Below are positions 18,343 to 59,663 of a stretch of DNA of 64,000 bases, piece after piece. How positions within the stretch are numbered: the first letter of the stretch is position 1; each line of letters opens with the position of its first letter. Under the pieces are notes generated by a model, which saw nothing but the letters and a program-made list of their open reading frames with translations, ran no database searches and had not been told where the DNA came from. The translations under genes were made by a program, and so were the position numbers. Origin of the DNA: Proteromonas lacertae (taxonomy: Eukaryota); NCBI GenBank assembly GCA_002245135.1, contig NGBS01000873.1, positions 186,001 through 250,000 on the forward strand, read 5' to 3'.

Positions 18343-19810
18343 ATGAGTTTTAAAAGAAGATCGTCTTCATCTTCGGAATATACTTGTTTGTTTGAGATTT
18401 TAGAGTTATTTCGATATGAAAATTGCAATGAAGATGATAAAATTAACCATTTTATGAATGTAGTATGATATTTGTTTAATATAATATTAGATTAAAGATT
18501 ATCAGGATAATTATAAAACAGTTTATTCATTATTTTTGCCATATTTAGTAATCTTAGCTAATAGACATCTTAATCTAAATGTCAGAAATAAACTTCAAGA
18601 ATTCCTTATATCTCCAACGAATGGCACTTCAATTCCACAATACAACAATACTGTTTCAAAGTTCATTAAGGATTTACCAGAATTTCAAACAAACCCAAGT
18701 AATGATTTATTTTTGCTACAGTCAAATGAATATTATTTCTCTCATTTGGATCAAATTTGTTATTTTCTACCGTCCTATCAACATAAGAGGTTATTGATTG
18801 GCAATACTATATACTCAACAGACAATCCACTCAGTTCAATATATAAATATTACATATCAATAATAACCTGCTTAATTCTGAATTACACATCAAAGTTACA
18901 ATTATATATTGATTTATATTTAAAAGAAGGAGGTTTAATAGAATGGATTAATTCTTCTTCATCTTCTTCAAATATTCCACTTAAATTAAAAATAATTAAA
19001 GACTTTTTAATTCAATTTATTGTAGGAACATCGACATTAACGCTTCAAGATTATAATAAGATTATTTATATTGATAAACATTGGTCTGGTTGTGAATTTA
19101 TACATATAATATTAATAGCAACGAATATTGTTGTAGATTCAATAATATCAATGGGTTGTGGAATAAATAAAGAATTAATAGACTATGATAATACAAATAT
19201 CCGTTTCATAATCCCATTAGCCAATCAAATTAAAGAAGATTCAAATAAAAGACGTACTAATATTGACCAATCAAGATTCAATGCAGGTAGTAGTATAGAA
19301 TTTACATGGGAAGAAGAAGGATATTCATATCTACAAACATATTGTACTGAATCAGCAGGAATCTTGGATGATATACATAAACTTTTCTTCGTTAAATCAA
19401 TAGACGAAGAAGATGTAAGTGATTATTTTAAAAAGGATAAAACAGATGCAATATATTATATGATAAATAGATATTATGGAATTACTTATGATCATTATTG
19501 CTATCCAGAAATTAATAAAATATTAGATGTAAGAGAGAAGCAGTTTATATATTCATTACTGCCTATTACTCAGCGAATATTTAATAATGATTTATATAGC
19601 AGTTTGAAAGAATGTGTTAATTCTGAGAAGAATATTGCTATTGTTACATTCTTAAGTAGTGAAGCAGTAAGACAATCATTGTTGTTAACTGCAATTACTG
19701 GATTGACTTTATGTAGGAATGTGAAAGGAGATTGTGAGATGAGTAATGGATTAGATAAATCTTGTAATAGAAGTAGTTTAGATGATATGAAAGATGATGA
19801 TGATATGTGA
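18343..19810 (+). CDS. Sestrin (PA26 family)
   Basis: LKEGGLIEWI, WSGCEFIHIILI, FTWEEEGYSYL...AGILDD, YYGITYDHYCYPEINKILD and SEAVRQSLLLTAI all match sestrin blocks. Confidence 0.8.
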
Positions 19811-20035: not shown

Positions 20036-21894
20036 TTAGACTAAAACTGTTAAATTCGGTTTATCAATCGAACAATCACTCAATATGGATTTACCTTGAT
20101 TAGATAAATTGTTTCTACCCATATTAACCTTCTCTAATCTTGATAAACTCTTAATAGAAACTGATAAATACTTTGCTCCTTCATCAGTAATTAAATTAGA
20201 TCCTAAATCAATCTTCACTAAGTCAGGACAGTTTAATAATCCTTTACTTATCACTTTCACACCTTCATTACCAATCTTACAATTGGATAAGTATAAATCA
20301 GTAAGACAAGGAATATCACATAAATGATTTCCAATTAAGATTGCACCTTCATCACCAAATGGATTATCTATATAAATAATAATAATAATATATATACATC
20401 CAATATCCAGTAAACTTAGATCAGGAAACAAATCAAACCTTTCCACCAACATTTTTACACCATTCACTGTTATTTTGTTACTTCCCAAACATAACTTCTC
20501 CGTGTAAGGCATATAATGTGCAGCATTTAATAAATATTTAATACCTTCATCTTCAATAACTTTGAAATATAAATTCCATTCATAATCTTCTTTAATACCT
20601 TTAATTATCTTCAGTTCGGTTGGATTTTGAACTAGCAATTTGCCAGTGATTGTTTCTTTGATTAATGGAGCTTCAAATGCTAATTGGATAATAACCCGAT
20701 AATATTGTTCTTCATTGGATTTGTTATATTCCATTATAAGTTTCTTTTTCAAATCTAATTAATAATAATAATAATATAATATTCAATAAATACCAGAGTT
20801 TTTAGCAATTTCTAAAATAATCAATCTTACACTCTCATAATCCTCTTTAAAGTCATCTAGATCTTTCATCATCTCTTCTACTGTCATTTCTGGATTTTCA
20901 TACTTTCCTAATACTCCCTTTACTGCACTTTCAGGTTCCATTTGTTCAATTAAGAATGACTTTGATTTTTCTTCTTCTAAATCTTCAATTATCAAGTCTA
21001 ATGATATTCTACGATTAACATCGTTGAGTATAAGTAAGTCAATAAGGTCTTTCATATAATTGGGGCAATCTTTTGGCAGTTTTGGATGAGCAGAATTACT
21101 AATTTTTTGATATAATAAACCAATGGTATCTGCTTGGAATAAATTAACACCACCAGTAATAGCGAAGTATAAAATACATCCAAATGACCATAAATCAGTA
21201 ACAACTGTTACTTCTGCATTATTCAAAATTTCAGGTGATGTATAGAATAACGTAGATGCTTTAAGTTTAAACGGACTTTCATAAAACTGATAAATGTTTG
21301 CATCAGTTAATACTAAATGAGATTCAGTATTAGTAGAATCTGACAAAATATTGGCTGGTTTCAAGTTTCCATGAATAAGATCATGCTCATGAAGTGATTT
21401 TAATCCATTTGCAATACATTTAAAATGAGATTTGTATAACTCTTCATTTCCAACAAATGAAGTATTTTTAACTAATAACTCAAAATTACCCTTTTCATAA
21501 TAGGGCATTGTAATGAACAATAGATTTTTTGGTAATAAATAAGTACATTTTGCTGCAATAATTGTTGTATCAATACAAGATTCAATACCATGTTTCTATT
21601 CATAATATTGGCTAATAAATAATGTTATACGAATTTTTCTACTGCTTCATTCCTGGATTTATCAACGTAAATTACTTTCATAACTACTTTATGATTAGAA
21701 GCATCATCAGTGAGGATAGTACATCCATTAGCAAGGTCATACGACATACATTGAACAGTCTAATGATAGAAACATATTAACCATACTGTATAGTGCAAAT
21801 CAGGATCAATTTTTTTCTATAATTTGAATTATAATATTAACAATACAAATGGAAATCCTTTTTCTACAAAAGAATTAGCATCACTGTAATTCAT
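20036..21894 (-). CDS. Kinase-like domain fused to RNI-like leucine-rich repeats (probable pseudokinase)
   Basis: HGNLKPANIL, YTSPEIL and DLWSFGCILY, followed by LRRs (LYLSNCKIGNEGVKVIS, IDLGSNLITDEGAKYLS). Joined by a short intron near 20755-20790. Confidence 0.8.
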
Positions 21895-22068: not shown

Positions 22069-22884
22069 CTACTCTACTATCTGTAATTGGTGGTTAATAA
22101 TTTCTTTATCCAATATTTTACTTAGTTCTTCGTAATCCTTCCAACATACATACTGGCATTTACGAGATTGGTTTTTCTTTATCCTATTATCCAAATTACT
22201 CTCTTTTCTAGCGCACACCTTATCAATGGATCTTAAATGCAAAGATGGACAAACATCATTGTCACCATCTCCAATATAGTATACATGCTGATAACTATTT
22301 ATGTTTAGAGTATCAACAACAGATCCTTTGCATAAGTTACATGGACATAGTTGACAAGCATGAGGTTGCTCCATATTTTGATATGCTGATACATGTAAAA
22401 TGCCATTTGCATCATAGGATCCAGGATTAGTGATAATTCTATCAAACAAATCTGAAATGTTGTTTGCTTTAACAACACATGTTATAAATTCGGTGTTGCA
22501 ATCACTTAATATGATTATCTGACTGTTATTTCGTTTATGTTTTTTTAAAACAGAGATTAACTCTTTGGAAATATGTATTTCTGTTAATAATAAATCAATT
22601 AGACATACTTTTTAACGATTCTTCTATTTTTGATTTAATGATGCCTCTGCGTGCTAATTTGTCAATCAAATCAGCCTATTTTTACATAATATTGCCATTT
22701 ATACAGATATATTTACCCAATTAGTGTGTTTCTCTTGTTCGTACATATATTCAATGAGATCTGGAGCAAGATCTTGTAATACTACTGTGAATGTGTCAAC
22801 AGGGCAAAAAGACCTATAAGGACTATAATAACAATAGGGATACAAATCGAAATCGAATATATATAATCTTGAATAGGTAGACAT
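22069..22884 (-). CDS. PHOSPHO1/PHOSPHO2-type HAD phosphatase
   Basis: YIFDFD motif I, ILSDCNTEFI, IITNP, CQLCPCNLCKG and YIGDGDNDVCP. Confidence 0.85.
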
Positions 22885-23124: not shown

Positions 23125-26100
23125 CTATTGTTCTGGTATGGGTGTTAGTGTATCTATTTTATCTTCTGACTTTCTTTCATTATCTAAATGTTCATCATTA
23201 AATGGTGGTTCAGGTTCTTCATTCTTACTGTGATCAATAACATGAACATCTGGCATAGCATGTGAAGCAACAGATGATGTAACAGCAATTTTACTCACTT
23301 TTCTACGAGATTTCATTCTTAAAGCAACAATAAACACAATAGCAAAAACAGTTACAAACATTCCAACACCTAAAAACAAATATGGTAAACCTTGCACTAT
23401 AGATTTCTTATCTGTTTTACCTCCATCTGCTACATAATTGAATGTATTACTTGATTTACATTTCATTGCATCAACTGTATGATGAAGTAAAGGATAATCA
23501 GCACCATTGAAATATTCATCTTGATCTAAAGCCCAAATCATTAAACCACCAAGATTTTTAGATCGAGCATATTCGATCTTTTCATTCAAACTACGATCAT
23601 TATCATAACTACACCATTGATCATCTTTCTGAATATACATACTTCGACTTATCTCATCATAGGTACTTATTCCACCTTCTTTTAACATCTCACTTATTTC
23701 GAAATAAGCTAAATAACCATCTGTTCGAGTCCATTTTCCAGGTTTTCCAGCACCAATTGCTTCACTTTTATAACCTTGGCCTGATGCTTTACTTTTCAAT
23801 GTCCAACAACGACCAAAGTAACCTAAACCCAAAAATAGTTTTTCACTTGATATTCCACTCGATAAATATAGATTCACAGCATAATCGATTGTGTATTTAT
23901 AATCTAAACTATTCTCATCTAAATCTTTTCGAGCATATAATGCAGTATGGAAATCAGTTTTATCTTCCCAAGCACCATGTAAATCATAACTCATTAAACT
24001 AATATAATCAACATATTTAGGAATTTCTTTCAAATTATAGCCACTTTCGATTTTATCATATCCTATTCCAACTGCTATTGTTAATAACAACTTTGATTTT
24101 CCATATGGAATGGATTCTCGTTCGATTGATTCTCGAGTTTCTTTTAATAATGATACGAAATTTTCTTTATCTTCTGGACGACCACCTTGAACTTCAACAC
24201 CTGGATATTCCCAATCGATATCTACACCATCGAAATTATTATCTCGAGCAAATTTCAATAATGAAGAGATAAATTTAGATCGATTTTCTTTACTTGAAGC
24301 CATATTTGTAAATATATGTTTTGTGTTTTCATAGAGATTGAAGTTCCAACCACCAATAGATATTAAGGTCTTGATTGAAGGATTTTGATTTCGAACATGT
24401 TGATTGAATCGATAGTATAAACCTTGACTTGGATTCCATTCGTTTATATCATTCCATTCAAATGGAATTACTCGATAACTTTTATCTTCTATTACAGCAA
24501 ATGCATAGTTTATATGAGTTAAGCCTTTTGCATTTATATTTTCAGGGAAATATGTATTACTAGGACGATATTGACTCCAGTTTGTATGATATCCCAATAA
24601 TTTTGTAATAGGTTTACATGTTCCATCATCATCAGGATTGGGATTTACAGTTGGATTAACTGTTGGTTTTTCCGTTGGAGGGTTAGTTGGTTTTTCTGTA
24701 GGAAGCGAAGTAGGTGGCGAAGTGGGAGGATTTGTTGGTTTTTCAGTTGGAGCACATGTTGGACAAGATGGACAAGGAGGACAAATACCACAATCCTTTG
24801 GACATGTTGCACAGTTTTCATTTGGATCGCATTTTCCATCTCCACAATATGATTCTGTAGGTGTTGTTGGTTTCGCAGTTGGTTTATCAGTAGGCTTTTC
24901 TGTTGGTTTATCAGTAGGAGGTTGAGTTGGTTTATCTGTAGGAGGTTGAGTTGGTTTTGTTGTTGGTTTTTCAGTAGGCTTATCAGTAGGTTTTTCTGTT
25001 GGTGGTTGTGTTGGCCTATCGGTTGGTTCATCGCATTTTCCACAATCATTTGGACAATTTTCACATGTTTCTCCTTTTGAACAAACACCATCTCCACAAG
25101 TAATACAAGAACCACAATCTTTAGGGCAGGATTCACAATTCTCTTTTGATTGACAAATACCATCTCCACATACTGTTTCAGCTGTTGAACAATCAATTGT
25201 GCCACTACATCTACTATCCCAAGTGTGAGCTATTGAACCATCATAACAGATTGTTCCTGGTGGAGTTGGAGTAGGATCAGTAGGACGACCTGCAACACAA
25301 TAATATAAGAATGGACAACAATTCTTTGGATAACAATGAGTACCATCACTTAAACCTTTACAGTTTGGTTTATCATTTCCTCCACTATTACTATCGTCTA
25401 TTTTGTGACATTCTTTTCCATTTCCGCTATATCCATCTTTACATACACATTGAACATGATTATTTGGAAGTAAACTGCATATAGCATTAACATCACATCC
25501 ACCATTATTTGATAAACATGGATTGGGTCTTTCAGTTGGTTTTGTTGTTGGTATTGTAGTTGGTTTTGTTGTTGGTTTTTCAGTTGGTTTATCTGTAGGT
25601 TTTTCAGTTGGTTTTGTTGTTGGTATTGTAGTTGGTTTTGTTGTTGGTTTTTCAGTTGGTTTATCTGTAGGTTTTTCAGTTGGCTTTGTTGTTGGTATTG
25701 TAGTTGGTTTTTCAGTAGGTTTTGTTGTTGGTTTTTGAGTTGGAGCTATAGTCTGTGGAATTGTAGGAGTTGATGTTGTAGGAGGATTTGTTGGTGCACT
25801 TGTTATTCTACATGGTCCACAATCAGCTTGGCAATTCAAACATGTTTCTCCTTTTGAACAAACACCATCTCCACAAGTAATGCAAGAACCACAATCTTCA
25901 GGACAAGATTTACAATTTTCTGTATCATGACATATTCCATCTCCACATTTGGATGCTGTAGAACATTCATAGTTTGATACACCACAATCAGAAGGATATG
26001 ATATTTGCCCATTTATACATACTGTTCCAGGAGGAGTGGCTGATAAGCCTGATGGGTTTCCATTAGAACAATAGTAGAAGTTTGGACAACAATCCATTGG

Positions 26101-29100
26101 GAAACAATGAATTCCATCACTTAAACCATCACATGTTGCTATTTAAAAATATAATTTTTCAATAATCTAATACGATTTGTTGGAACTATTAAATGACATT
26201 CTTTACCATTTCCTGAATATCCCTCTTCACAAGTACATTGTATAACATCATTGTCTAACAATTTGCATTCTGCATGTTTATCACATCCACCATTATTTGT
26301 TTCACAAGGAGAACCTATAGATATTTATATTCAAAATAAATAAAATACATTCTCCACAATCTTTTGGACATGTATGACAATTCTCATTTGATGAACAAAT
26401 ACCATCACCACAATAAGGACACTTTCCACACTATTGAAATAATAATATACAACAAAATACATCAATCTCACAAGAATTGCAATCTTCTTTTCCATTGCAT
26501 ATCTCATCTCCACATTTCGGTTGTTCATCTACTAATGTAAATGAGTTGTAAATTGCTGAAATTAATGGATATTGTTTCTTGAAATAATCCATATCAATTG
26601 ACCATATTGCTACACCTGATGGTTGATAAGTCTTTATAACTTCTGCTTTCTTTTCAAATGCATATTCATCATCAAAACTATAATATACAAAGATTATATA
26701 TTCAAAAATACGTAATAAATTGATCTTTGCTTTGAATATAACTTGATATTGTATTATTCTCAAATATTCCTTTGTAATTGTTATTCTTTAATAAATCATA
26801 TACTTCATAATAGGCTAAAGTACCTGCAGTTTGTGTATATAATCCTGCATTACCAGGACCTTTTGCAGGAGCATCATAAGATTGATCAGAAGCTGGCGAT
26901 TGTAAAGTCCAAGATCTTCCATAAGTTGCTAAACCAATAACTAATTTATGTCTTGGTAAACCTTGATTTAACCAATAATTAACAGCATAACTATAACATA
27001 ATAAAATTAATTTAAATACTCCACTGTGTATTTTGGATTTGAGCTTTTACTGAATGGATAAACACCAGTATGAGGACCTGTGACACTATCCCAAGCACCA
27101 TGAAAATCGTAAGTCATTACATGAATCCAATCTAAATGTGGATGTAATCTAGGAATATCATATCCTTTTAATATTTTATCTTCACCTGAAGCAGCAGCAA
27201 TTGAGAAAATGATTCTTTCTTTTCCATCTAACAATCTTTCATCATTTATAGCTTGTCTCATTTCTTGCACTAGTTTAACAAAGTTTTCTTTATCTCTTGC
27301 TTTTCCACCTTGTTCTTCATGACCTGGATATTCCCAATCCAATTCTACACCATCAAATCCATGTTGTCTAACAAAATTCATAACAGAAGTAATGAATTTC
27401 TGACGATTTTCATAAGTACTAGCCATATCACCAAAAATATGTTTTGTTCCGCCATTTTCATTGAAATTCCATCCGCCAATGCAAATTGATACTTTACTCT
27501 TTGGATTATAATCATGAATCTTCTTTATTACACGGTAATACATTCCTTGAGTAGCATCCCAATCAACAATATCATTCCATTCAAAAGGAATAACTTGATA
27601 TGACTTGTCACTAATAACAGCAAAAGCATACAAAACGTGAGTGAAATATTCTAAACAGTAGATTATAATAAAATACTTGGATCGATATTCTCTGGGAAGA
27701 AATTACCAATTCCATGTCGATATTGTGCCCAATTTGTATAATAACCGATAATCTTGTTAATTCCCTTCCAATCATTATCTAATGGAGGCGCTGTTGGACA
27801 TTCTCCACAATCTTCTTTACATGTAATGCAATTCTCATCATTATTACACATTCCATCACCACAATATGGACATTTACCACAGTGAAATATGCATTAAGAA
27901 ACCATAAATAAATACATTTTAAAAAATGATATATCTACTTCACAATTACTACAAGTTTCTGTTCCATTACAAACTCCATCACCACATACTGGTCTTGTAG
28001 GTAATTCACATTTTATTCCACTGCATTTACTATCATATGTATGAACAATTTCTCCTTTATAACATAATATTCCTGATAATGTAGTAAGTGATGTTGGTTC
28101 ACCATTAACACAATGATAACTAAAACTATATTGAATGTGATATACTATTGAGGACAACAATCTACTGGCCAACAATACATTCCATCTCCTCTTCCTTCAC
28201 AGTAAGCTATTAATAATAAAAGTAACAATATAAAAGAATACGTTCAGTATAATATTTTTCTTCACATTTTACACCATCACCTTCAAATCCAGGTTTGCAT
28301 GTACAATTAACTGAATTATCTTCATTCAAACTACAATATGCAAACTCACTACAACCACCGTTGTTAATAGTACAAGGATGACATTCTTGTGTATTACATG
28401 GAGTTTCTTTTACTAAAGCAGGACATTTCTCTCCACTACCAATTGGATAAATAAGAATCTCTCTATGATATACTTCTATACCTCCACCACATTCTTTATC
28501 ACATTCTTTAAACAAATACCATTCACCAACAACACAATCAACTTTTATATTTCCTACTCTTAGCTTGGATGTTAATTGCTTAAATCCTGTATATTCATGA
28601 GAATTAGCATTTACAGTATAATATATCGGGAATGGAGATCCAATAGCGAAAGTGAAATCATCTTTATTCTTTGTATCCATCTTTCTAACAATTTTAAAGT
28701 AACTATAGAAATCTTTCTTTTCATTCTCTTTTGAAATGAAATATGAATTAGTTTTTTCTGTTAATTTCTTTGTCTTTCCATCATTTTCGCATTTTTGAGA
28801 ATAAGCTTTCATTTCATTCTGATCAACTTTGATTAAATCACTATTACATTCATCATTTCCTAATGCTATTGAATAAGAATCTGTTGTGAAAGCAATTACC
28901 CCAATTGATATTTCATCATTATTTATAGACCAAAATACTTTCATATTATCACTTGGAGGATTTGAAAATTGATATCCAGGCAGTGTCATATGAGGCAATA
29001 AACCAATTTCAGCAACAATATTTGCATTTTGCAATGCATCTTTAAACATATCATTCTGAATAGCAAATTCTAATCTACTATCTATTTCATTTGCATTTTC

Positions 29101-31452
29101 TGTAATATCAGAAACATGGAAATATATTTCATTATCATTTCTGACTTTCATTAAACTAACATCATTTGATTTAAAACCAATAACAGATGCTAATATTTTT
29201 GAGACTGTATGACAGTTATTTTCATTCAATTTATACTCACTTACGAATTTAAATCCATCATTAACACCATTCACAAATATATCAGCTGGTTCTGTTGTTA
29301 CACTTCCAAAACTGTTTGTAATATGACAATAATAACTACCAATTATTTGTGAACTAGCAATCATTGTTATTGATGGTGTTGAATATCCTAATTTTACATA
29401 ATTTTCATTAACAAAAGGTTTAAAGAACCATTCATATTTCATTGGAGATTGACCTTTAACTACTGGAGCAATAGTAACAATATCATTTGGATTGATATTA
29501 GAAAGAGATTTTGGTTGTTCAATAATCATTGGAAGACATTTATTACCACAATCTACATCTTTCAATCCAGTATAACAATTTGAAAATTGATATAAATCTT
29601 CAATCAATACTTCAGAATACATTAAACATGCTTTATTCCAATTACCAAATTTATTAATTGAATCACTAAAATAGGTTAATGCTTTGCATGTATCTGTTTC
29701 TATACACATTTCATTACATTCTTCTAAGGATTCAGCAAATGGACCTGATTCGTAATGAACTTCATCATATGTATTTTTATCACCAGCTGGAACAGCAAAT
29801 ACTTTTATTTTCTTATCTCCAATTTCATTGTCTGGACCTGGATCTTTACTGATTTGACCTTGGAAATTTGATTTAACAACACTTTCCATTGTTGGACCTC
29901 CAAGTATTTCTTTTTTAGGTAAATATGCTCTAATGACAGCTAATAATAATCTCCAATCATATCTAAAACTAATTTCATTGTTATATTCATTATTCTTATC
30001 ATTACGATGTTCAGCTATCATATTGAATGCTTCATAAGCACTTTCTCTGATTATTGACCAAGGAATTGAATCATAATCACCTTTAACAGAATCATAAGGA
30101 TAACTTTCTTCCAAAATATCTATAAACTTCTCAACAAGTTTCCATGATATTTTATAATCATAAACTTCATTGGCATGATCTAAAGCTAGACAAACTGTGT
30201 TAATATCTTTACTATGGCCACCAAATCCATCTAAATTACAATCTGTAATAGGATCTTTATCAGGTGTACACTATTCATATATATATATATATATATAACA
30301 TACTGATGATAAATCCATATTACCAAATAAACCACGATTGTAAGTATACATGGCTGTAGCAAATTCTAAAGCATCTTTACCTTCACGATCTGTTCTAGAA
30401 TCCCAAGCAGGTCTTAAACCCTAAGAAATATAACAAAATAATGATAATACTTGTTTAGTACACATCATAAAGACATTATGACGAAAATGAAAATCTAAAC
30501 TTGTCATAATAACAGCACGATATGGATTTAAAACCATAAAATCATGGAATTCTCTTAATTCACTATACTTCTGTAAATATTCATTATCAGAAATATAACT
30601 ATATTAATAAATATTATCACAATTAAAATATACGTTGGAGTTCTATCTTTCTTTGGAACACTTTTTGAACCAATATAAAATCGATGTGGCATACATGAAA
30701 TATCAGTACTCATTGCCGGGGTTTCAACTTGGAATATTCCATCTTTATTTCCATCTGTGCACAACCCATCACTATTAAAACAATCAAATTCATCATTCTC
30801 ATTATCAACAATAAAATATGAATTATCATTTTCTTCATAAACAGCGGTAGCAAAACTTTCTTTTGCTGCTAAACCCATCAACATGTGTGGATTTAAACCA
30901 TATTCATCTTGGGCATAACCCATAAACATACCCAACAATTTATCAGGTAATCTGATTCTTACATTTGTCATTGATACAGTTACAACATCATCTGTTCTTC
31001 CAATATACATTTGTGTTAATTCTTCATCAAGACGAGGATGTGCATGGAACATACATGCACGATTATTACCTGCTGAATAGACATCAGGATTATCATAATT
31101 TGGGAAATAATTCATGATATAACGAACTTGATCCATTATTCGATTTGTTTGTAATCCTATTGACCAAGGCATGTGGTTAGTTGGTGTCATGATAAAAGGA
31201 TTATACTGAATTTGACCACCAGTAATCCATGACTTAGTTGAAGCTAAAAGACGGGATTTCTTATTAGATTCATCACACGGTGTTGACTGACATATTCCAT
31301 TACACAGATATGGTTTGTATGGATATTCATTAGATATACACTTCAATTCATTGATATTCATCTTCAAACTATACACAATTATCAAAAGTATCAAAATACA
31401 GCATAATTTTCTGAATAGTAACTGTAGATAACATACTACTGTTGATATTCAT
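23125..31452 (-). CDS. Giant membrane-anchored mosaic glycosidase: lysozyme-like (SLT/GH23) domain, PAN-like, Ig, DOMON-like, TSP1, EGF and Cys-rich repeats, two GH18 chitinase domains, PT-rich mucin stalks, TM helix
   Basis: ORFs 30555-31394, 28210-30114, 27894-28175, 27663-27851, 27007-27633, 26431-26763 and 23125-26097 join via short GT..AG introns at the junctions I checked. GH18 motifs [11 protein letters not shown] and [37 protein letters not shown]. Confidence 0.85.
25523..25740. repeat. Coding tandem repeat with 12-bp base unit and ~72-bp higher-order unit ([24 protein letters not shown])
   Basis: Repeated ttggttttgttgttggtttttcagttggtttatctgtagg, encoding a P/T/K mucin linker. A related array lies at ~24640-25030. 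Confidence 0.9.
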
Positions 31453-31716
31453 GTTACTATATTCATAAATCTTTGAATAACCAATTTCTTTAACCTAAAG
31501 ACAATTTGTTAATTAATAAAGAAAAATCTACTTCATGGGATTTTTTGATGTTGATCAGAAGTAATAATAATAGAAAAAATAAAGACAATATGTGTTTAAT
31601 AAACATAATTATAAAAAAAATAAAATCTATTCTAAAAATGAATTCGTTTTATTTCGTGTTTTTTCTTTAAATCGTGTTTTTTATGTGATCAGCATAAAAT
31701 AAACAAAAAACACTTA

Positions 31717-32488
31717 CTATAAATAAATTAAATTCTTTGAAATTTTCAAAATTGATAAGTCTTCATTCCTTGCTTTTCGATTAATAATTACTTTTGTTTT
31801 TAATCCACATTTTTCTAGCATATTTCTAATATCATCGATCTTGTTTATTTTTTCTACAACAATATAACCTACTCCATTATCTGATAAAATTTTCTATAAT
31901 TTTACACATTATGATAAATAATACACATAGATGAGGTATTACTTTATCTAAGACTTCTCTTCCATTCTTTCCTCCTGCCCACGATGCTGTGATATCTTTC
32001 AAACCAACTTCAGAAGAAGGAGTAGAAACATAAGGAGGATTAAAGATAAAGACATCCACTTTGTTGGATATTTGAGGTAATATATTGTCTAACAAATCGC
32101 AATTTACTACATCATAACAATATAACTACGTATAAAACAAACTATGAATATATAATACATTATTCTGTTTGAAAGTAGATTTTGTTATAGAACATGCATT
32201 TTCATTTATATCTATTGCTATATAATACACAGAGGGTGAGTCTATTTATTGAATTAAACTAGAAATACTCATTACAAGATTAAAACCAGAAGACAAAACA
32301 CCACTCCCACTACCCAATTCTAAAATAAGTGAAATATTATTATTTTCTTTTAGTTTTTCTATATCCTTTTGAAAAGCATCAATCATTAAATAAGAGTCAT
32401 CTGATGGTTCATATCTAATCACAATGGCTATATAATCATACACATTATTAAAATCTTTGTAAGACAAATGCGATAAATCAGGTAGCAT
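31717..32488 (-). CDS. N6AMT1: HemK2/N6AMT1 (Mtq2) methyltransferase
   Basis: VY/EPSDDSYLMIDA, LELGSGSGV, AIDIN, FIFNPPYVSTP, SWAGGKNGREV and RKARNEDLSIL*. Confidence 0.88.
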
Positions 32489-32686
32489 TGAATAAAAATG
32501 AAAAATTAATATTTATTTTGAAAAAAGTGCTTGAGAAAAAGCTTGTAATAATTCATTTTTGTTTTTTTCTGTTGTTATAAGGATTATTATTTGCTATAAA
32601 CACTCAATATTGTTAATTTGTATAAAAATTTGTACATATGGATAATAGATGCACATATAACAAAATTGTCAAACAATAAAAGGAAT

Positions 32687-34092: not shown

Positions 34093-35248
34093 ATGTCTCG
34101 TAAAGCATCACCAGACGATTTTGGAGTCGACCTACTTGTATAGATGGATGCTTATAATTTGTTTGTAGAGGAATGCTTATAATACATACAAAACTAGTAA
34201 ATTGACTCCATTTCCCGATCTTTACCTCGAAATTGACAGAGAGTGTAACATTTTATTTGAAGAATTATATCGTATACTATTATACCTAATATTGTAGTAA
34301 CAAAATATGAAATTGCTGAATGGCAAGGGTTTTATTTGAGATTATGGGCAAAAAGCGAAGTGGAACTGGATCATGTACTAGCAGAGAATTTTTTAAAAGA
34401 AATCTCTGTTGAGACAGTTCCTCTTTTCCAAAATTATTTTTCAATATCTCGTATATATTCATATTTTTACGTGAAATAGATGGAAAAGTGACAATATCGC
34501 TATTCATAGAGTTTATTTGTGTATTTGCATTCTTTTATAACAAAGATCTTTTAAAATGTATGATTGGAATATTATTTAATCTATAGTAATGTTGTCTATA
34601 TCAAATATACAATCAAACAGATTTGTTAGTGAGAAACAAATATCCTCCTTCTTATCTGACTTAAATGTAGATGATGATCAAATTCACACAGTAGTTCATT
34701 GGGCAAGATCATTGAAGGAGAATCATGATTCACTCATTCATCTAACTACATTTTATCAATACATAATAAGTCATGATTATTTGTTAACAGCTTTAGATAT
34801 TCTTAGAACACAATTATTGAGGTGTATAATAGGACAAGAGTCTTATTATACAATACTAACTAGAAGGAATTATTATAAGAAAATTACCTCAGCAGGAGTA
34901 ACTGTAGCACCTCCCAAAGAGAATTGTTATCAGCATTGTTATAGGACATTAATTAGTGGACGTCCACCTCCTTATTATTATGATTATAAGCCACAGGTTG
35001 TACAAAAGAAGACAGGTCGATGTTTATTGTATATTAGGAAGAGATATGGGTATAGTAATAGGCCAGATAGAGAAAGTAGTAAAAGATCGCTATGCAGTTC
35101 AAGAAAAAACGAATCATATGCATCTCTCAGTTCATATTGTAGTAAGACAATATATTTGAACTCCAAGTCACTTTTGATTAATAAATCATCCTGTAAAGGT
35201 GATGGTAGGATAATAAGTGATGTACCTGGAACTGTGAACTTAGACTAG
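34093..35248 (+). CDS. Tandem family X, copy 1 (unknown; possibly degenerate EF-hand)
   Basis: Shared blocks YEIAEWQGFYLRLW, DGKVTISLFIEFICVF, ISNIQSNRFV, PKENC and PPPYYYDY...IRKRYGYSNRP, then a Ser/basic tail. Confidence 0.75.
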
Positions 35249-35450
35249 ATTGTGTATTTTTATTTAAAGAATTAATGAAGATATATTATGTCATTTAAAT
35301 ACTTCTAGCTTAATTTGTTTATAGTCTTTTGTTTTTATTCTTGTTTTTAGGGAGTATATTCAACCAAATTCAGTTGTTTAGAATAAAACAAGCCAAATCA
35401 TTTTAAAAAACAGGTTTTGTGTAACGAAGTTTATAAATGACCAATGAATA

Positions 35451-36675
35451 ATGAATGAAGATATTATAACTGAATTAGTATACTATTTCTATCATGTTAG
35501 AGTGATGGATGTGAGTATTATGAAACACATCGAGGATCTCGACCTTTTTCTCGTTTGTTGGTTAGATTAGGAGATGAATGTCTTCCATTGTTAGAAAGAC
35601 TATATGGTATGTGTTATTAACATACACAATTATAGTAAATAACTACGAATTATCAGAATGGGAATGGTACTATCTAAAATCATGGTCAGAAGATCCCAAA
35701 AAAACATACATATTATCAGGTCCTTTTCTATATAAATTAGGTATAGGTAATATCCCAATATTGTATAATTTCTTCAGCCCATATAGTATAATATAATTTA
35801 CAATAATAATAATTTAATATTATTAAATAGATGGTCAAATTTCATTGACTTTGTTTATAGAGTTCATTTGTATATTCACATTTTGTTCTGATGAACAATT
35901 GATACCTCTTCTTATATCACTTGGTAATATAAAAAGTAACAGAGTCATTACTGAAACCCAAATTACTCATTTTTTCACTTCACTCCACACACTTCCTGAA
36001 ATAATGGAGAAGATAACGATTTGGTTATTTGATGCTAAGAAAGATGAAAATGGGTTTATATCATTAGATGCGTTTATAAAATATGTTTTATCTGATACAT
36101 CATCGTTTCTAGAACCTATAGCTCATCTTAAATATCAAATAATATCTTGTATCATATCATTAAAGACATACAATAATATACTCTCAAGGATGAAATATTA
36201 TCAAGAAAAATATGGTGATTCTGAGAGAATAATAATTAAAAATGAAACATGTTTAGAATCTATGCAACGGAGGCTGTTTACATCATTTCCACCTCCCTAT
36301 TTTTTTAATTATCGTCCTTCTTTACACACACCCACATTTAGTGAGATAATATGCAATTTTAGAAAGAGATATGGTTATAGTACAAGACCTAGAGGTAATA
36401 GCTCGATGAATTTATCTTCAACTTCAAGATTGAAAAGACCAAGTGCTAGAGAATCTCTTTCATCTTCAATGATTGGAGCAAGTGTAAGTCACTCAGCTAC
36501 TACTCCTAATGGTGCGATTAAGGGTAGTTTTATGAAAAAAATTGCTATGAATAAAGTTGTGCCTGTAACTTATAATGAATCTGTAGATAATTCAATGAAG
36601 ATGAAATCTCTAACAAAGAAACTGAATAGTTCGTTTTTTTCAGATCATAAGACTTTAAATAGTATTTCAACTTGA
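35451..36675 (+). CDS. Tandem family X, copy 2
   Basis: NNYELSEWEWYYLKSWS, LFIEFICIFTF, GNIKSNR and PPPYFFNY...RKRYGYSTRP. Confidence 0.75.
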
Positions 36676-36791
36676 ATAGAGTCATGTAGTATATAATTAT
36701 TTATTTTCTTTTTTTATTTTTAAAATTGGGTATATGAAAAAACTGATTTTTTTTGAAGTTTTGTGGGGAACAAACACTTCAGTTATGCGAA

Positions 36792-37978
36792 ATGCAGAAT
36801 TCAGAAAGCATTTGTAACTATGTATTGAGAAATATTTTATTAATTTCTAGATTAAAGCAAATGAATTTCTGAAAACTCACAAGAAATCAAGACCTTTTAC
36901 ATATTTAGTAATGCCGTTAGATAGTCATGTGCGTCCTTTATTAGAAATTTTGTTTTGTATTGTTATATACCATTAATATTCTCATATAGTAAATAATTAT
37001 GAATTATCAACATGGGAGGGTTATTTTTTGGATATATGGAGTATGCATCCTGAAGGTGAATGTATTACATATCATACACTCATTAAAGCTCTTGGACTAG
37101 AAGATTTGCCTCTTCTAAGTTCCTATTTCTTAGAAAGTAGTATTTTATTTCATTATTATTATTATATAGACGGATATATTTCATTGAGTTTATTTATAGA
37201 ATTTATCTGCACTTTTACGTTTTTTTCAATCAAACAATTAATACCTGTATTACTATCAGTTAATAAAATACAAAGTAATAAATTTTTGACAGAGACTCAA
37301 GCAATAAATTTCTTTAAATCACTAAAATTAACAAAAACATCAATGCAGTTAGTTCAAATCTGGATTAATAGTGTAGAAAGACTTCCAAAGAACTATATAT
37401 CACTACAATCACTCTATAATTTAATCAAAACAAACGAAGGATTGTTATTTCCACTATATAATATAAAAACACATATAATAGATATAGTAATCACCAGAAA
37501 GCAATATAATATAATAAATAATAGAATAGAATATTATCAAAAGAGAAAAGGAAATTATACTATGCCCAAAGAATCGATGTGTGAAAAAATATCCAGAAGA
37601 ATCCGTTCTAATGATCCACCACCTTTTTATTACAGTTATTCTCCAACACTACAAGATATGAAGGTTGATAATTATTTAATTGAAATTAGACGTAAACATG
37701 GTTATAGTAATATATCAGCACGTAGAAGAAGTGTTCATTCTGAAGTGAAAAGAAAGTCGTTATATTCAAATTCACAATCTACAAATAGTAAAATGAAAAT
37801 AATTGGTTCTCCTGTAATTGGTACATACTCTATTAATTTAACATATCGTCAAAAGGCAGGTAGTAATAGTAGTGGTGGTGGTGGTGGTTCTGAATCTTTT
37901 CCACATAGTAAAAGTAATAAATATGTATTACATAATGGTAGAGTAGTTCCTATTAATAAACATAAATCTATGCTTTGA
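36792..37978 (+). CDS. Tandem family X, copy 3
   Basis: NNYELSTWEGYFLDIWS, DGYISLSLFIEFICTF, GLLFPLY, PKESMC and PPPFYYSY...RRKHGYS. Confidence 0.75.
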
Positions 37979-38176
37979 AAGTATAGAATTAGTATTCGTT
38001 TACATTTTTTTAATTATTAAATTTTCTACTTAACCTATATGTTTTTAATATAAATAAATATGTTTGTTAGAATATATAACGTACAACTTTATTACTCTAA
38101 AATTTAACAAATGTAACAAATGTATTGTTCAAAAAATTGATTCGTTTTACATTACATTTTCGGTTATGGATTTGTT

Positions 38177-39476
38177 ATGGATGAGGATGACAGCAAAGAG
38201 CTGCTGGTATATTTTTAAAATTATATTTGCAGGAAAAAGGTTACAGATATTACATTCAACATCACAACAGCAGACCATACTCGTATTTACTAATACCTTT
38301 GGAACCAGACTGCTATCCCTTTCTTAATAGTTTATATTGTATGCTAACATATTAATTTGGATAGTAAATAACTATGAAATATCTGATTGGGAGGAATATT
38401 ATCTGAAACTATGGTCTACAGACACATCTAAGGATTATGTTCATTCCGGTGTAATTATATCAAGCTTAAGTGTAAGTGAGTACCCAATATTTAAGAGTTA
38501 TTTTCGTCCATTCAGTATTACTTACTTTCATTATTTATTTTTTTAGGTAATAAAGTGTCAATAACGTCATTTATAGAATTTGTGTGTATATTTTCTTTTT
38601 TTACAAATGAGCAATTAATCCCATTAATTTTCACACTTAATAACATCCAAAGTAATAGAGTTGCAACTGATGTATATTAATATATATTACTGTTTTAATT
38701 AGCAACAACTATTTATGTTATTTAAATCATTGCTAGTAGAATCGATAGATGCAAATGATATAAGGAAAAATATATTAGAAATACCAAGAGATGCAAACGG
38801 ATTCTTACCTTTGTCAGAAATAACAAATATTTTAAGAGTTAATAGATCCTTGTTACAAGGGATAGAAAAACTTAGAACAGCGTTAATACAAAAAGTGATA
38901 AAGGATGAATATTATTTAACAATCAAACGAAGAATATTTTATTATAGTAATTATCCACCAGATGATGGTTATACAAAACCGAAAGAGTCGTGTTTAATCT
39001 ATTTAACAAGATGATTATTCTCTTTTAGACCTCCTAGTTATTACTATGATCATAGACCTATAAATAGTCATATGCAATTAGATGAGACGTTATTCGTGAT
39101 AAGGAAAAGATATGGTTATAGCTCAAGGCCAGATAGGTATAGTTCAGTTTCCTTATCAGGTAATTATAATAATTCCAGACATAACTCCACAGCTACTAAT
39201 TCTCATGTTTTGAGATCTAGAGTCTCAACAAGTATATTAAATAATTTATCTGTTAAACCTGAAAATCATCGTTCAATTTCTACTACTCTTTTAAACCCCA
39301 AAACCCCAATTAAAAGTAAGTCTATTTATACTGATTCACTTCTCTGTAATGAGAATAATAATAGTAATATAAATCATGAAAGCCTTAATAATAACAATCA
39401 TAGCAGCAAACATGGTAAGTGTAGTCATATATCTGTGAAAATTGTTCCTATTGATGCTATTGATGATCAAGTGTAA
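38177..39476 (+). pseudogene. Tandem family X, copy 4, with one in-frame TGA (39012-39014)
   Basis: PKESCLIYLTR*LFSFRPPSYYYDHRP...IRKRYGYSSRP. ORFs 38715-39014 and 39072-39476 share a frame. Confidence 0.65.
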
Positions 39477-39596
39477 TTATTGTATTTATTAATTAATAAT
39501 ATGCTATTTATTTAACTAAGTAATGTCATTTATAGATGTTTCTTTTATTTGGATGATTTAAAAAAAGAGTCGTTTTGTAACTTATTTTTCAACTTA

Positions 39597-40818
39597 ATGT
39601 CGATTTCATGTGATACAGACGATATTTTAGTTTTAGTATGATTACTTTTATTGTTATTATTATAGGAGAATGCTCTTCACTACTATAAAACTCACAAAAA
39701 ATCTAGGCCTTACCAATTTTTACTGTTAGATGTTGGTGATGAGTGTAAATTGTTATTTGAGTTTTTTTATTGTATAAATCTATTTTCTTCTCTAATTATA
39801 TAATTTTTAGTAAATAATTATGAGATAACTTCTTGGGAAGGGTTTTACTTGAATTTATGGAGTAAAGACAAGTCTAAACCATATATACCTTCTGATTTAT
39901 TCCTAAATTACTTGGGTTTAAACGATATTCCAATTTTGACTCTCTATTTCAATGCGTTTGGTATAATTTTAATATTATAAAATACAAATCATAGGTAATA
40001 AAATTACTGTATCAGTATTTTTACAGTTTCTCATCATATTTACATTTTGTACTAATAACCAAGTTATTTCGTTAATGTTGAATATATGTAATATACACAG
40101 CAATATATTTGTAGATGATGTATTCAATTATATATATATATATAATGAATAGGAACAAGTTCTTTATTTCTGTAAGAATCTATTAGGATCAAAATGTAAT
40201 CTAGCACCATTCAAACAATGGTTAGCTGGAGTAGATAGAATTGAAAATAAAATGATTAAAATATCATCTCTAGTGGAGTTAGTAATGGTTGATCCATTTT
40301 TGAAATTACCTATGATTCAAATTAGAAACAAGTTAATTGAAGGTATAGTAACATACAGTGAATATAAAACAATATTTGATCGCAAAATATACTATGAGCA
40401 TATGAATTATAGTAATCTGAGTTGTAATAAGCATATCGATACGCAGATGAATCACAAAATTGGAGGATGTTATTATTGTTGCTTTTGTTTTAGTAGAGCA
40501 CCTCATCCTCTTTATGTCAATTATATTCCTTTAAATTTGTTTAATTGTGAGGAATGTCTTTTATTTATTAAGCAGAAGTTTGGTTACTCTGTAAGACCTG
40601 TGAATTTCCAATTTTATAAGAATTCAAGTATGAAATACATGTCTGCTGAACATAGAAATTCATCTCGTTCATTTAGATCAAATAAGAATTCTTTAGTTAG
40701 TGCTAAAGTAATCAAGCAAATATCATACAAAAAAAGTAAAGGAGACATACCAAAATACTCTATAAATTTCATTCCACATGTGAAACCTTCTCTTGTTGAT
40801 CAAAACACATCTGTATAA
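39597..40818 (+). CDS. Tandem family X, copy 5
   Basis: NNYEITSWEGFYLNLWS, CNIHSNIFV and APHPLYVNY...KQKFGYSVRP. Confidence 0.72.
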
Positions 40819-41034
40819 GTTTATTTATTGCCCAAATATACATATATATGTATTTAATTATGAAGTATAGTCATTTATATTTATATTGTTTAAACCCTTT
40901 TAATAATGTGTTTATGACTTATTGAGTTGCTAGACTGTTATGTAACATAATAAAATAAGTAGTGAATATTCATCTCGCTGTACTCATAACCAAATAAAAG
41001 AAAATACACAATAATACACAAAGAAATTTAGGAT

Positions 41035-42224
41035 ATGTGTAACGAACTTGATATGGAAGATGTGGATGAGTTGGTATTATTTTTGATTATAATATGTATT
41101 TTTAGAGAGAAGCCTATCAAAGATATATAAGCCATAAAGTGAATCGACAAACTCAATCTCTTCTTGTAGAAGTCTCGTTAGAATGCCAATCTTTTTTCGA
41201 ACTTCTGTTTCGTATATATAATTTTTTGGATATATTTGTCATAGTGAATTATTATGAAGTGTGTGAATGGCAATGGTTTTATTTAAAATTATGGTCTGAA
41301 TCTTCAGAATTACCATATGTGGCTACTACAAAACTACTTAGTAAATTAGAATTATCAGACAGTAGTATTTGTGCCAAGTATTTCTCGATTTATGGTATAA
41401 TTGTTAATTTTATTGTAGATAACAAAGTAACAATGTCAGTGTATATAGAGTTCATATGTCTCTTTGTCTTTTTTGATAAATCTCAACTCACGTCGTGTAT
41501 TTAGATCTCAAAATATAAATCAATAGTGATATTATCAACTGCTAATGTATTAAGCAATTTAATGATCAGCAAGAATCAAATAATGTCATTCTTCTTGATA
41601 ATCGGTGCTAGATCAAGTCAAATCGATACTGTGAAACAATGGATAAAGAATGAAGTAAAAGTTGACAAAAATGGATATGTACAGATGCAAGCATTTGCAG
41701 AATATGTTCACTCTTATCCTGGTCTTTTAGCTCCTTTAGACAAGATAAGAGGTATGTTAATTAAGAATATTGTTGGTGAGAAATTCTACTTTAACATTGT
41801 ACAAAGAAAACATTACTATGAAGAATGTATATTAGTTGGAAGGGATTTAATAGAACCGAAAGAACCTTGTTTTATGATGTTATTCAGAGTGTTATTTACA
41901 AATGAGCCTCATCCTTTTCATTATGACTATAGACCTTATACAGTACATAAGACATACGAAGAATGCTTAGCTGTTGTTAGAAAAAGGTATGGATACAGCA
42001 ATAGACCTGTTAGAGAAATAGCTGTAAGTATAAGTTCAAATTCAGGATCTTTCCACCAGAATCTAAATTCATCAAGATCTAGATTTTATAGTAGTAGTAA
42101 CAGTTCAGTAATGCATTTAGTTGACAAGAAACATCATTCAATAAATTCTTCTAGACACAAAAACAGTAACTTGTCAAAAGTATTTAAATCTAATAGAGTA
42201 GGAGATGGCTTTTTATTTGAGTAA
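41035..42224 (+). CDS. Tandem family X, copy 6
   Basis: NYYEVCEWQWFYLKLWS, YIEFICLFVFF, PGLLAPL, PKEPC and EPHPFHYDY...RKRYGYSNRP. Confidence 0.75.
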
Positions 42225-47299: not shown

Positions 47300-49901
47300 T
47301 TAATAATTAAAACTTAATTTACAGTTATAAATACTTGTAATTTTATCTTGAATTCTTTCTTCCAACTCATTAAATATATCTTCATAAAATAATCTCAGTA
47401 TTTTCATCAACTCACATACTACTTCTAAATTATATGCCAATAAATCAGTAATTATACTATTCAATGTATTTTTTATCATAGACTTATTCTTTTCATTAAT
47501 CAATAACCACTCTTTATATTTATTTCTAACTACTCGGAAATTGTTGTTATTATTCTTATATTCTTTATACCATTCTGGATTATTCCATTTCATTTTATTA
47601 TTTTCATGAATATTTATTGATTTTTCGATTATTTTATGTTGTAATTTTGGTTTGAATAATTCTATCGAGTTTATATCTAATTGTGAATAACTTGGTATAT
47701 CAAACATCTCTTCATTGAATAATTTCTGATCATCCTCATCTTCATCATCTTTTTTCATGATATCTTCTTCTATTTTCCTTCGCTTTAAACTATGTTTTGA
47801 CCATTCTTTTGTCTTATGATGTAATGAAATAGCTGATTTATATTCTTTTCTAATCTCAGGTGGTAATTCATCTAATACATCCATATCAACTTGAGATGGA
47901 GTTATAAAACCATCTTCACCTATCACTCTTTCTCTTTTTGTATTATTATTTTCATTATCATTACCAAAATTATTATTATCGCAATTACCATTATTCTTAA
48001 AGAAACTCTCGACAGATGCATCAGTTATATTATCATCACTTAATTTCGTCATATTTATACCTAAACCTCTTACGTCACTTGGATTACATTTGAATTGTAA
48101 AAATAAATTCTTTACTGCTGGAAAAATTATATTTATATCATCAGTTTTTACTCCTAAAGTGATTGATTTACTATTTATAATTATATAAAACATTTGTATA
48201 TATATATATATATATATACGAATGATTATCACATTGACCATGACCTAAATACTTTGTAGCTTCTGGAGCATTTTCAGATTTCTGTTTCAAATTAATGGTT
48301 ATACATTTTCCTAATAAATTATTCTCTTTTAATCTTTCACATACTTCAGTTGATAACTTTTCAAGGAATTTATTCACTTCATTTAATGTATTAAATCTAA
48401 TACCCCAAGTTACTTGTGCACCAATCGACTGAGGTTTTGTATTACTATTCAATTTCCGATTATCAATGCCTCTCACATGTTGCCATAATGTTTCACCATT
48501 TTTCCTACCTAACCATTGCCATAATCTTGGTTGAGGAATATTTAATAAATCATTGCATGTTTTTACATTATTTTGTTCTAATAATGACAGTGTATGATAT
48601 CCAACTCCAGGTAAGATTGACACTGATTGAGTTCCTATGTATTTATTGTATTCCATTAAGGACATTTCATACTGACCATTTGGTTTAGCTTTCCTTAATG
48701 CAATTCTTGCTAGTAATAAATTCTCACCTATTCCTGCACTTGCTTTACATCCTGTTTCTTTATAAATTCTATCTCGAATTTCACTTGCTATTGAATATGG
48801 ACTATCAAATTCGCTTAAGTCTAATATTGCTTCATCGCAACTTAATGGTTGTACTTTATCTGTATAAGAATAAAATATTTTAAATATTGTTTCAGATGTC
48901 TATATATATATAATTAATATTTCACTAATAATTAAATACTTTTAATATTAAATCAAAATCATATGGTAATACAATCAAGTCTTTACATACTTTCTTTGCT
49001 TCTTCTAACCACATATATCGACTTATTCCTAATTTTCTAGCTATATAATTTGCACAACTAACATCACTGTGCTTTCTATATATATATATATATTAATTTA
49101 TATATACAAATTTGGAGCTGTTGATACTACTACTGGTTTATCTTGATATTCTGGATGTTTTAATAAAGCAACTGATACAAAATAACAATCCATATCTATA
49201 TGACAATAAATTTGATGTATTTCTTCATTATCATTGTATGATGATAACAAATTATCTATTTCCTTATTCTTATTTTCATTCTTATTATCGTTTTTCATTT
49301 TTCGTTTTAAATGAGATTTGAATGTTCCTAAAAAATGTAATCTTGAACCACGGAAGTATTTGTTTATAAAATTTGGATCATCTTTAGCTGATTTAATTTC
49401 ATTTGATAATTTTAAATCACCTTTAGATGTTGTTGAATTAGATTGTGATTTTGTAAATAAGGATTTTTGATTTTCTGTTTTCATTTCACTCAATAAATAA
49501 TTTTCATATGGAATTAATTCGTTTTTATTAATTGAATCGGTTATCCATTCAGGATAGACGTATGGAAGCACTTTAACATAACTTCTATTAAAGAAAATCA
49601 TTTTTCTGTATACAATTCTTCTAATGCTCGAGATTTTGCTATTTTACTAGCAATCACATGAGTAACTTTGCTTCTATCCAGAAAATAACTGAAATTACCA
49701 CCATGAAGAACTATCAACCTCTTCAGCTCTGCATTTCCAGGTATTGTAAAGCCATTTATGTAAATTGTCACATTTTTAAATATTGTAGATATTTGTTGAA
49801 ACCTAAGCTAATAAATCACTTACACAATACCTTAACTCTTCATGCTCTTCAGCAATTCTATCACATTTGTCATAAAAATATTCTTCACGAGTTCTTTTCA
49901 T
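47300..49901 (-). CDS. REV1: REV1 translesion deoxycytidyl transferase (Y-family)
   Basis: N-terminal BRCT (IFKNVTIYINGFT...HGG...VTHVIA), YFRGSRLHFLGTFK, HIDMDCYFVSV, SCDEA, LPGVG, KYLGHGQCD, DVRGLGI and UBM ITPSQVDMDVLDELPPEIR. Confidence 0.92.
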
Positions 49902-50148: not shown

Positions 50149-51321
50149 TTAATGAATAACATCACCAATTTCATTTGCTTTTCTTTGATCAATCATATTA
50201 ATTGAAAAATTATATATCAAATGTGAGGTACTATGGGTGAAAATACTACCTTTCTTTATAGGTATTCCAGATTTCTCTACATTTCTAAATATTCTATTAG
50301 CATTCGATAATCTTGAACTATTTCTAGATACAACACTAGTACATCTATGTGCATATCCAAATTTTTGTCTTAAAGCAACTATTACTGAATCCCTTGATTT
50401 TTCAACTGCTTCTCTAACATAATAATCACATTTATAAGGAGGTGGGCAATGAATAAATAATACTCTGTAAATATGTTTACAACATGGTTCTGGTGGTGTG
50501 ATAGTTGTATATCCATATGAATAATAAAACGATATTCTTTTCTGAATTAAATTATATAAATAACTACCTAATGTTAAATTAATAAGCGATTCTCTAAATG
50601 AATATAATCTATTCACAAAACTAGTTTCGCTGGTTAGAAAATCAATTAAAGATCTTACTGAAAAACAATTTGGTTTGCATTCTCCGCTATATGTATATAT
50701 AGAACAAATGTATTGTATATATAATATACTCAGCTTCAAACTGATTAGTTCTAATTGCATCAGGTAAGTCTTCATAAGCTTCTAGAGGAAGTAAATAAGA
50801 TTCAAAAAAGGACTGTAACTGCATGACATTGACAAATAAATTACTATAAATACCTGACATACTCAACAAAACTAATATTATATTAGATGATTTAAAAAAA
50901 AGAAACAGACAAACGAACAAAATGTAATCTGAAACATATATTTTATCTTCTGGGAAAAACAATTTAATAAAACCATGATGTTCAGGAGCTATTTTCATTT
51001 GTAGCAGTGATAATGGGACATAAGGTAAAGATGTATCTCGATTCCACAAAAGAAGGTATGTACTCTCTATTGCATTTATTTTAAATTTATTCACTATTAT
51101 ATATAAAATCATTGTGAATAATACAAAACAGAGTCAAAGCCATTAATTGTACATTATGATCTATAGGTACATACAACACTTTTGATGAGTCAGTTTCGTA
51201 TGTTTCCATGATTTTATATCCATCTTTCTATTAAATATGCTATTATAATTTAAATTACTAGAGAGTAGAGTATATCATCGGATTCTGGGCTTGATCGTGG
51301 AGACACAGACGCTTTTTTCAT
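50149..51321 (-). CDS. Tandem family X, copy 7
   Basis: NKFKINAIESTYLLLW, YILFVCLFLFF, SGIYSNLFV, PPEPC and PPPYKCDY...RQKFGY. Confidence 0.72.
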
Positions 51322-52886: not shown

Positions 52887-53061
52887 TTTCCTTGCCTACA
52901 TAAAAATATGTATTAATTATTTTATTGATACATATAAATAATATATTCTACTGAAACGACAATAACTGTATTTTCTTGTATTTTAGAATAAAATAAGACA
53001 TTTATCATATTACTTAACAAATAAATTATACATGAATTTACAATATAATTACAACTAATCT

Positions 53062-59585: not shown

Positions 59586-59663
59586 GGTAAATTATACTTT
59601 TGAAAAAGAAAAAACTAAAGAGCCACTTCATATTTCTTAATACTTCCTTTATAATCAGTTGCT

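Follow-up and report, generated by a model that had tools for sequence, protein, structure and literature searches.

Locus and gene model

The stretch of DNA analysed here (the window) comprises 64,000 nucleotides (nt) of contig NGBS01000873.1 from the Proteromonas lacertae assembly GCA_002245135.1 (positions 186,001 to 250,000 of the forward strand) and is AT-rich eukaryotic DNA of about 27% G+C (GC) with tiny introns. On its minus strand, from 31466 to 23125, lie 14 exons that join into one stop-free frame of 2,635 amino acids (aa), with splicing inferred from the DNA and from homology. The predicted product is a single type I membrane protein in which an N-terminal domain of the Jessie3 daub/ChiD type, related to an Entamoeba protein and to an archaeal chitinase, is followed by a long modular region, two GH18 chitinase domains and one C-terminal transmembrane (TM) helix. 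A first-pass annotation made from the letters alone had joined the reading-frame fragments of this region into one gene, and the stop-free exon chain bears this out, as do the Pfam GH18 matches at both sites and the single C-terminal hydropathy peak (about aa 2552) for its two GH18 domains and TM segment. Its module order also stands, but the protein is about 2,635 aa long rather than ~2,500, and its intron size of ~25–35 nt describes the GT-AG introns and not a longer AT-AC intron. The features are as follows; all are on the minus strand.

23125–31466, whole gene, 14 exons, predicted type I membrane protein of 2,635 aa
31368–31466, predicted signal peptide, aa 1–21 (hydropathy peak; depends on the intron 31457–31422)
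29857–31208, Jessie3-daub/ChiD-type domain, aa 75–492, exons 2–5 (homology, match of catalytic residues)
29533–29745, PAN domain (Pfam PAN_1, E 1.7e-4, above cut-off)
29269–29532, Ig-like domain (Pfam Ig_3, E 0.058, below cut-off; Ig matches in the PDB, E 5e-5)
28978–29265, stretch of ~95 aa without a Pfam match
28558–28950, DOMON-like domain (Pfam E 0.002, below cut-off)
28264–28536, TSP1 (spondin type) and EGF (Pfam TSP1_spondin 3e-12, EGF_3)
28008–28201, cysteine (Cys) module 1, weakly CBM14-like; more copies at 25963–26133 and 25189–25362
27882–27932, AT-AC intron, 51 nt, phase 0 (donor ATATCATT; branch-like TTCTTAAT, containing an in-frame stop)
27798–27986, CGDG Cys repeats 1–2 of nine; others at 26313–26514, 25810–25947, 25033–25170 and 24754–24846
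26542–27758, GH18 domain 1, FDGVELDWE (Glu at the first inner Asp), CIGGW (Pfam)
26196–26306, EGF 2 (Pfam); EGF 3 at 25408–25518, by eye
24628–25800, three Pro/Thr-rich stalk segments between EGF, Cys and CGDG modules (Pfam PT repeat, sequence)
23473–24606, GH18 domain 2, canonical FDGVDIDWE (Pfam)
23128–23391, TM helix (aa ~2548–2572) and 63-aa cytoplasmic tail

Expectation values (E) of the EGF_3 matches in the exons are 8e-11 and 8e-12. A SEA-like reading of aa 690–785, the ~95-aa stretch between the Ig-like and DOMON-like domains, received no support.

Twelve of the introns are internal, and their GC content is 0.10–0.23, compared with 0.31 across the gene span. Eleven of them are GT-AG introns of 26–35 nt that each begin with GTAT and end with TAG; the twelfth is the AT-AC intron. 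A further intron near the 5' end (36 nt, 31457–31422) provides the signal peptide and is atypical (GC 0.31, GTAA...CAG), and a competing canonical intron of 31 nt (31399–31369) would delete the hydrophobic segment. The 5' end and first exon are thus the uncertain part of the model, with 31452 and 31361 as other possible starts.

The AT-AC intron is needed because it holds an in-frame TAA, because GT-AG alternatives destroy conserved repeats, and because its removal restores a CGDG repeat identical in pattern to its paralogous repeat. Splicing by GT-AG introns only around 27.9 kb was rejected, as the introns required would cut the conserved CGDG repeats. The donor is an imperfect minor-type site, and the minor-intron motif by itself lies within chance: the window contains five candidate donors, compared with a mean of 1.9 and a maximum of 6 in 50 shuffles. 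The paralogous repeat carries a 30-nt GT-AG intron (26431–26460, minus strand) at the equivalent phase-0 site, so that AT-AC and GT-AG introns occupy equivalent sites of duplicated repeats, possibly reflecting a switch of intron class within one gene.

The N-terminal domain

By homology, the N-terminal domain is of the Jessie3 daub/ChiD type and not a generic GH23/SLT domain. A homolog search recovered 11 proteins from 380 candidates, including Entamoeba Jessie 3a, a chitin-binding lectin of E. marina, and Pelomyxa and Mastigella proteins; identity is 44–48% to Entamoeba Jessie3 and 44–49%, over 410–460 aa, to Jessie3 and the archamoeba proteins together. Two separate exons each match only one structure below E 0.05, the archaeal chitinase 5XSV (E 1e-5 and 3e-6, collinear), which the profile of the daub family matches with E 8e-25. 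The daub domain of a metagenomic relative (locus L001), 54% identical to that of the window, gave a predicted fold with a predicted local distance difference test (pLDDT) score of 92.7, and this model matches 5XSV with a Foldseek E of 8e-14 and, in structural comparison, with Z 35.6 (root-mean-square deviation 2.9 over 347 residues). Next come MltC (Z 9.9), MltE (9.0) and a goose-type lysozyme (8.5), over ~155 residues. The earlier description of this N terminus as lysozyme-like therefore holds for the core fold but not for the family. Pfam and NCBIfam models, SLT/GH23 included, gave no match on the daub exon pieces, nor on whole homologs; as the daub domain has no Pfam family, the annotation of proteins that carry it reads simply GH18 or hypothetical protein.

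The C-terminal domain of Jessie3 has been equated with ChiD, for which E532, D566, E572 and H693 are the proposed catalytic residues (PubMed Central, PMC8136499). Through the 5XSV alignments these correspond to E191 (30858–30860), D230, E236 and H373 (30214–30216) of the window protein, and of 35 aligned rows, 28 fully cover the four positions and 22 of these read E-D-E-H. The eukaryotic daub domain is a candidate chitin hydrolase.

Several homologs depart from this pattern. Five divergent daub proteins (P0060, P0063, P0064, P0065, P0079) align without the catalytic residues, which they have lost, and may form a non-enzymatic branch. A Lys replaces the catalytic Glu in P0021, a member of the short-form cluster described below, either as a variant or through sequencing error. 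P0040, an environmental protein of 1,401 aa, has the daub halves in swapped order (aa 758–1089 and 1276–1348), possibly a circular permutation.

GH18 domains and cysteine-rich modules

The two GH18 domains are 47% identical to each other. Domain 2 matches Pfam with 1e-88, above cut-off, and its DxxDxDxE motif is intact. Domain 1 matches over three exons (2e-51, 4e-13 and 0.006), two of the three pieces passing the cut-off by themselves; it retains the catalytic Glu, but its motif is DxxExDxE, an Asp-to-Glu change that occurs in five of 129 motif matches among the fetched proteins. In Serratia ChiB, the Asp and Ser equivalent to those altered in domain 1 support the catalytic Asp. The activity of domain 1 is probably reduced, and the domain is likely to be weak or mainly a binding module.

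The three eight-Cys modules belong to a family common to other protist-type GH18 proteins. Pfam CBM_14 had no match on the exons, and a profile of the modules matched CBM14-type stretches with E 0.001–0.05, chiefly in its first half, whereas reversed controls reached no better than E 1.8; the same profile had no match to the Jessie chitin-binding domain (CBD) at E<0.05. We infer that the modules hold chitin. Five further proteins (P0122, P0125, P0132, P0161, P0162) combine a Cys module, CGDG repeats and a GH18 domain without daub, most with a C-terminal hydrophobic segment, and may represent a wider family of tethered chitinases.

Relatives and evolution

A metagenome scan yielded 15 loci from 120 pattern matches, and 11 of these (L001–L004, L006–L011, L014), at 36–59% GC, encode a short form in which daub is followed by CGDG repeats, Cys modules and a single GH18 domain. 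Of the remainder, L005 stops at a contig end, L013 and L015 hold only daub, and L012 is a bacterial-type frame of 1,216 aa with GH18 first. In L001–L003 a single uninterrupted frame of 1,225–1,237 aa runs from daub to the TM segment and stop, and TGTTTGTT lies 20 nt past the stop; this element was not found 3' of the window gene. The three loci checked for it (L006, L009, L014) carry a 30-nt intron at a phase-2 site shared with the window intron 30633–30599. A protein cluster matching the short form (P0001) has 230 members, and P0045 is also of this form. A scan of genome contigs gave one relative from 46 pattern matches.

The short form and the window protein share daub, Cys modules, CGDG repeats, the Pro/Thr stalk, GH18 and the TM segment; their daub domains are 52% identical and their GH18 domains about 50%. 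They differ in that the short form, of about 1,220 aa, has one GH18 domain, an N-terminal Cys module and no PAN, Ig, DOMON, TSP1 or EGF domain, whereas the window protein has two GH18 domains and the insert. In a quick tree of 54 rows both window GH18 domains group with that of the short form (Shimodaira–Hasegawa-like approximate likelihood ratio test support, 91). The long form likely arose from a short daub, GH18 and TM gene by internal duplication and insertion. PAN, Ig, DOMON, TSP1 and EGF occur in none of the 15 metagenome loci, and none of four long relatives (1,184–3,380 aa) matching the PAN-Ig-DOMON-TSP1 exon has the cassette, a weak negative since intron-split genes are fragmented in the collection. 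Among the relatives examined, the insert and the daub-first order with two GH18 domains were found only in the window protein.

A protein search at the 50% level returned 41 proteins, including 86%-identical relatives present only as pieces of ~185 aa and further GH18 and daub fusions. Besides the short-form P0045, the latter comprise Vallitalea P0071, P0068, P0078 (which has two or more GH18 domains), P0009 and P0055. Another fusion, P0101, has two GH18 domains, daub and a TM segment. Apart from P0045, these proteins and L012 join both catalytic families in one chain, as the window protein does, but they put GH18 first, and their GH18 domains either take other positions in the tree or have diverged too far to be placed; they look like separate events. 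The first-pass annotation knew of no described protein with this architecture, but the core is not unique: gut relatives conserve daub with GH18, some with a TM segment, and the combination turns up again in bacteria and in other eukaryotes.

Neighbouring genes

No wall-related gene was found among the neighbours adjoining the gene. These include a sestrin-like PA26 gene (18491–19810, plus strand), a protein kinase (20783–21595, minus), a HAD phosphatase (22069–22611, minus) and, by eye and with no Pfam match, a HemK-like methyltransferase (31877–32512, minus). Farther away, two clusters (34479–42044, plus; 50293–63188, minus) together hold about 12 members of one unnamed family of paralogs, 22–57% identical in pieces and with no convincing Pfam match, and pieces of a Y-family (REV1-like) DNA polymerase lie at 47300–49643 (minus). 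Two long adjacent frames at 54571–56566 (plus), with a partial second copy at 59031–59492, encode acyltransferase-3 and SGNH domains, the layout of an OafA-type O-acetyltransferase; this gene is possibly of bacterial origin and possibly linked to the acetylation of surface glycans.

Possible function

On balance, we consider it probable that the gene encodes a surface-anchored protein, combining a daub/ChiD domain with two GH18 domains, that remodels the organism's own chitin cyst wall or coat. After export, the protein would stay anchored in the plasma membrane, and the Cys modules would grip chitin. GH18 domain 2, next to the membrane, would cut and compact new fibrils close to it, while the daub/ChiD domain, carried on the stalk's tip, would trim chains farther out and may self-associate, sealing the wall; the PAN, Ig, DOMON, TSP1 and EGF block likely gives the protein a longer reach and further surfaces for binding. 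Two Entamoeba proteins that are transported together, Jessie3 and chitinase, would thus be fused in one chain. In Entamoeba, Jessie3a and chitinase appear simultaneously and are both enriched in electron-dense vesicles, inhibition of chitinase mislocalises Jessie (PMC12944779), and round cysts require chitinase (PMC8552601). The idea of one tethered multi-domain protein is retained from the first-pass annotation, which had left open the digestion of fungal or insect chitin and bacterial walls or the remodelling of a cyst wall; the adhesin role that it also put forward is conjectural. The match to 5XSV, far above that to every muramidase, makes chitin a likelier target of the N-terminal domain than peptidoglycan, and a cyst wall likelier than prey.

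Several observations weigh against this interpretation. Recombinant E. histolytica Jessie3 was without chitinase activity, for which the authors allow misfolding, and no chitin binding by its daub domain was seen (PMC2698119). The bacterial GH18 and ChiD fusions (Vallitalea P0071, P0068, P0078, and L012) are presumably nutritional, and fusion alone is therefore no proof of a role in the wall. The first large exon of the window gene itself folded poorly (pLDDT 38), leaving its fold unusable. No Cys module precedes the window daub, unlike in the short form, so the window gene may be a paralog of the latter. In a corrected daub tree, built without L006, L009, L013 and L014, the short forms are nearest to the window by path, but the branch that would group them with it is not robust; we therefore claim no donor or direction of transfer.

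A foraging role appears unlikely: a cellulosome-like tether would carry endo-acting GH18 and ChiD domains that digest dietary insect or fungal chitin, with the expansion tracking a chitin-rich host diet. The archaeon that makes ChiD uses it for feeding, bacterial GH18, ChiD and CBM fusions exist, and the long form doubles GH18 and lengthens the stalk; yet the short form is retained across many gut loci of widely different GC, and the closest named relatives of the daub domain are cyst-wall proteins. That daub is structural mortar, which would seal the wall by self-aggregation and leave the cutting of chitin to GH18 domain 2 alone, we hold to be quite improbable. All four catalytic residues persist in lineages ranging from archaea to protists, and daub has repeatedly been fused to GH18 in unrelated lineages. 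The product of ChiD is chitobiose, to which the Morgan–Elson reaction responds poorly. In favour of mortar, the C-terminal domain of Jessie3 aggregates with itself and was inactive when assayed, but that assay measured N-acetylglucosamine by Morgan–Elson (PMC2698119) and may miss chitobiose.

A muramidase or lytic transglycosylase activity of the N-terminal domain, directed at gut bacteria, has little probability in our estimate. The lysozyme-like core described above would fit this, as would the agglutination, often with disruption of the outer membrane, of Escherichia coli cells carrying Jessie3 fusions in the periplasm (PMC2698119), which wall damage could also explain; but the ChiD match is far better and covers the whole domain, the exons, scanned in pieces, gave no SLT/GH23 match, and the fusion partners are chitin modules. 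Slightly less probable still is a locus that mainly makes something other than one protein, the AT-AC intron being often retained to give a secreted, Jessie-like daub-PAN-Ig-DOMON-TSP1-EGF form of ~1,125 aa without GH18 or TM. Minor introns are often spliced slowly, and the internal TAA and imperfect donor are compatible with retention, but splicing restores the paralog-pattern repeat, the region shows no further start site that would bring its own signal peptide, and relatives carry daub through TM in one frame. Also quite improbable is a bolder combination of these elements, in which daub is a true eukaryotic ChiD-class chitinase, one tethered enzyme uniting Jessie3 and chitinase builds or opens a Blastocystis-type cyst wall, and in this lineage the AT-AC intron acts as a switch that yields either a secreted form resembling Jessie or a tethered three-enzyme form.

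Comparison with known systems

The homology of Jessie to ChiD, a Blastocystis daub homolog and two Blastocystis GH18 genes were already known. Within the open-access full text covered (the top 12–20 matches of larger searches), the daub, GH18 and TM fusion, its recurrence and the long form were not found, although supplements S10 of PMC8136499 and S2 of PMC12944779 may show part of this; passages of PMC8615776, PMC6131217, PMC10535946, PMC11943626 and PMC12713403 contribute nothing on mechanism.

Animal multi-GH18 chitinases of the chitinase-10 type also combine several GH18 domains with Cys-rich binding modules (35–39% identity), but theirs are true CBM14 modules and they have no daub domain. 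ChiD (5XSV, 5XSW, 5XSX) shares the fold, as modelled for L001, and the proposed catalytic residues with the window domain at ~21% identity, and is a prokaryotic enzyme.

Blastocystis has introns of ~30 nt and minor AT-AC introns (PMC5608401), both also seen in the window gene. It encodes a chitin synthase and has chitin in its coat (PMC5608401), and the 30-nt introns and the TGTTTGTT element after the stop in short-form loci fit this genus (PMC5608401, PMC12129017), in which, according to a section title of PMC12129017, stop-codon loss is not universal. The GC content of the window falls between two ranges given in PMC12129017. A daub domain has been noted in a hypothetical protein of Blastocystis (PMC12944779), KAK8816815.1, which is likely of the short-form kind. 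No named Blastocystis protein was among the matches of the homolog and protein searches, so a Blastocystis-type protist is a likely rather than a demonstrated host of the gene. Blastocystis spreads as cysts, our literature search found no paper naming its wall proteins, and a tethered daub and GH18 protein offers a concrete cyst-wall candidate and marker.

A close parallel is Jessie3 of Entamoeba, which has in common with the window protein the ~420-aa domain and its four residues. Jessie3 is ~620 aa long, with an N-terminal eight-Cys CBD and no GH18 domain; in the window protein the shared domain is N-terminal, no eight-Cys CBD of the Jessie lectins precedes it, and a long stalk and two GH18 domains are joined to it. 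Like the window protein, Jessie-C of Mastigamoeba ends in a C-terminal TM segment (PMC8136499). Jessie3 makes up about half of the Entamoeba wall protein (PMC2698119), and the present comparison bears on whether it is a glue or an enzyme: the conserved catalytic residues and the repeated fusion to GH18 argue for an enzyme.

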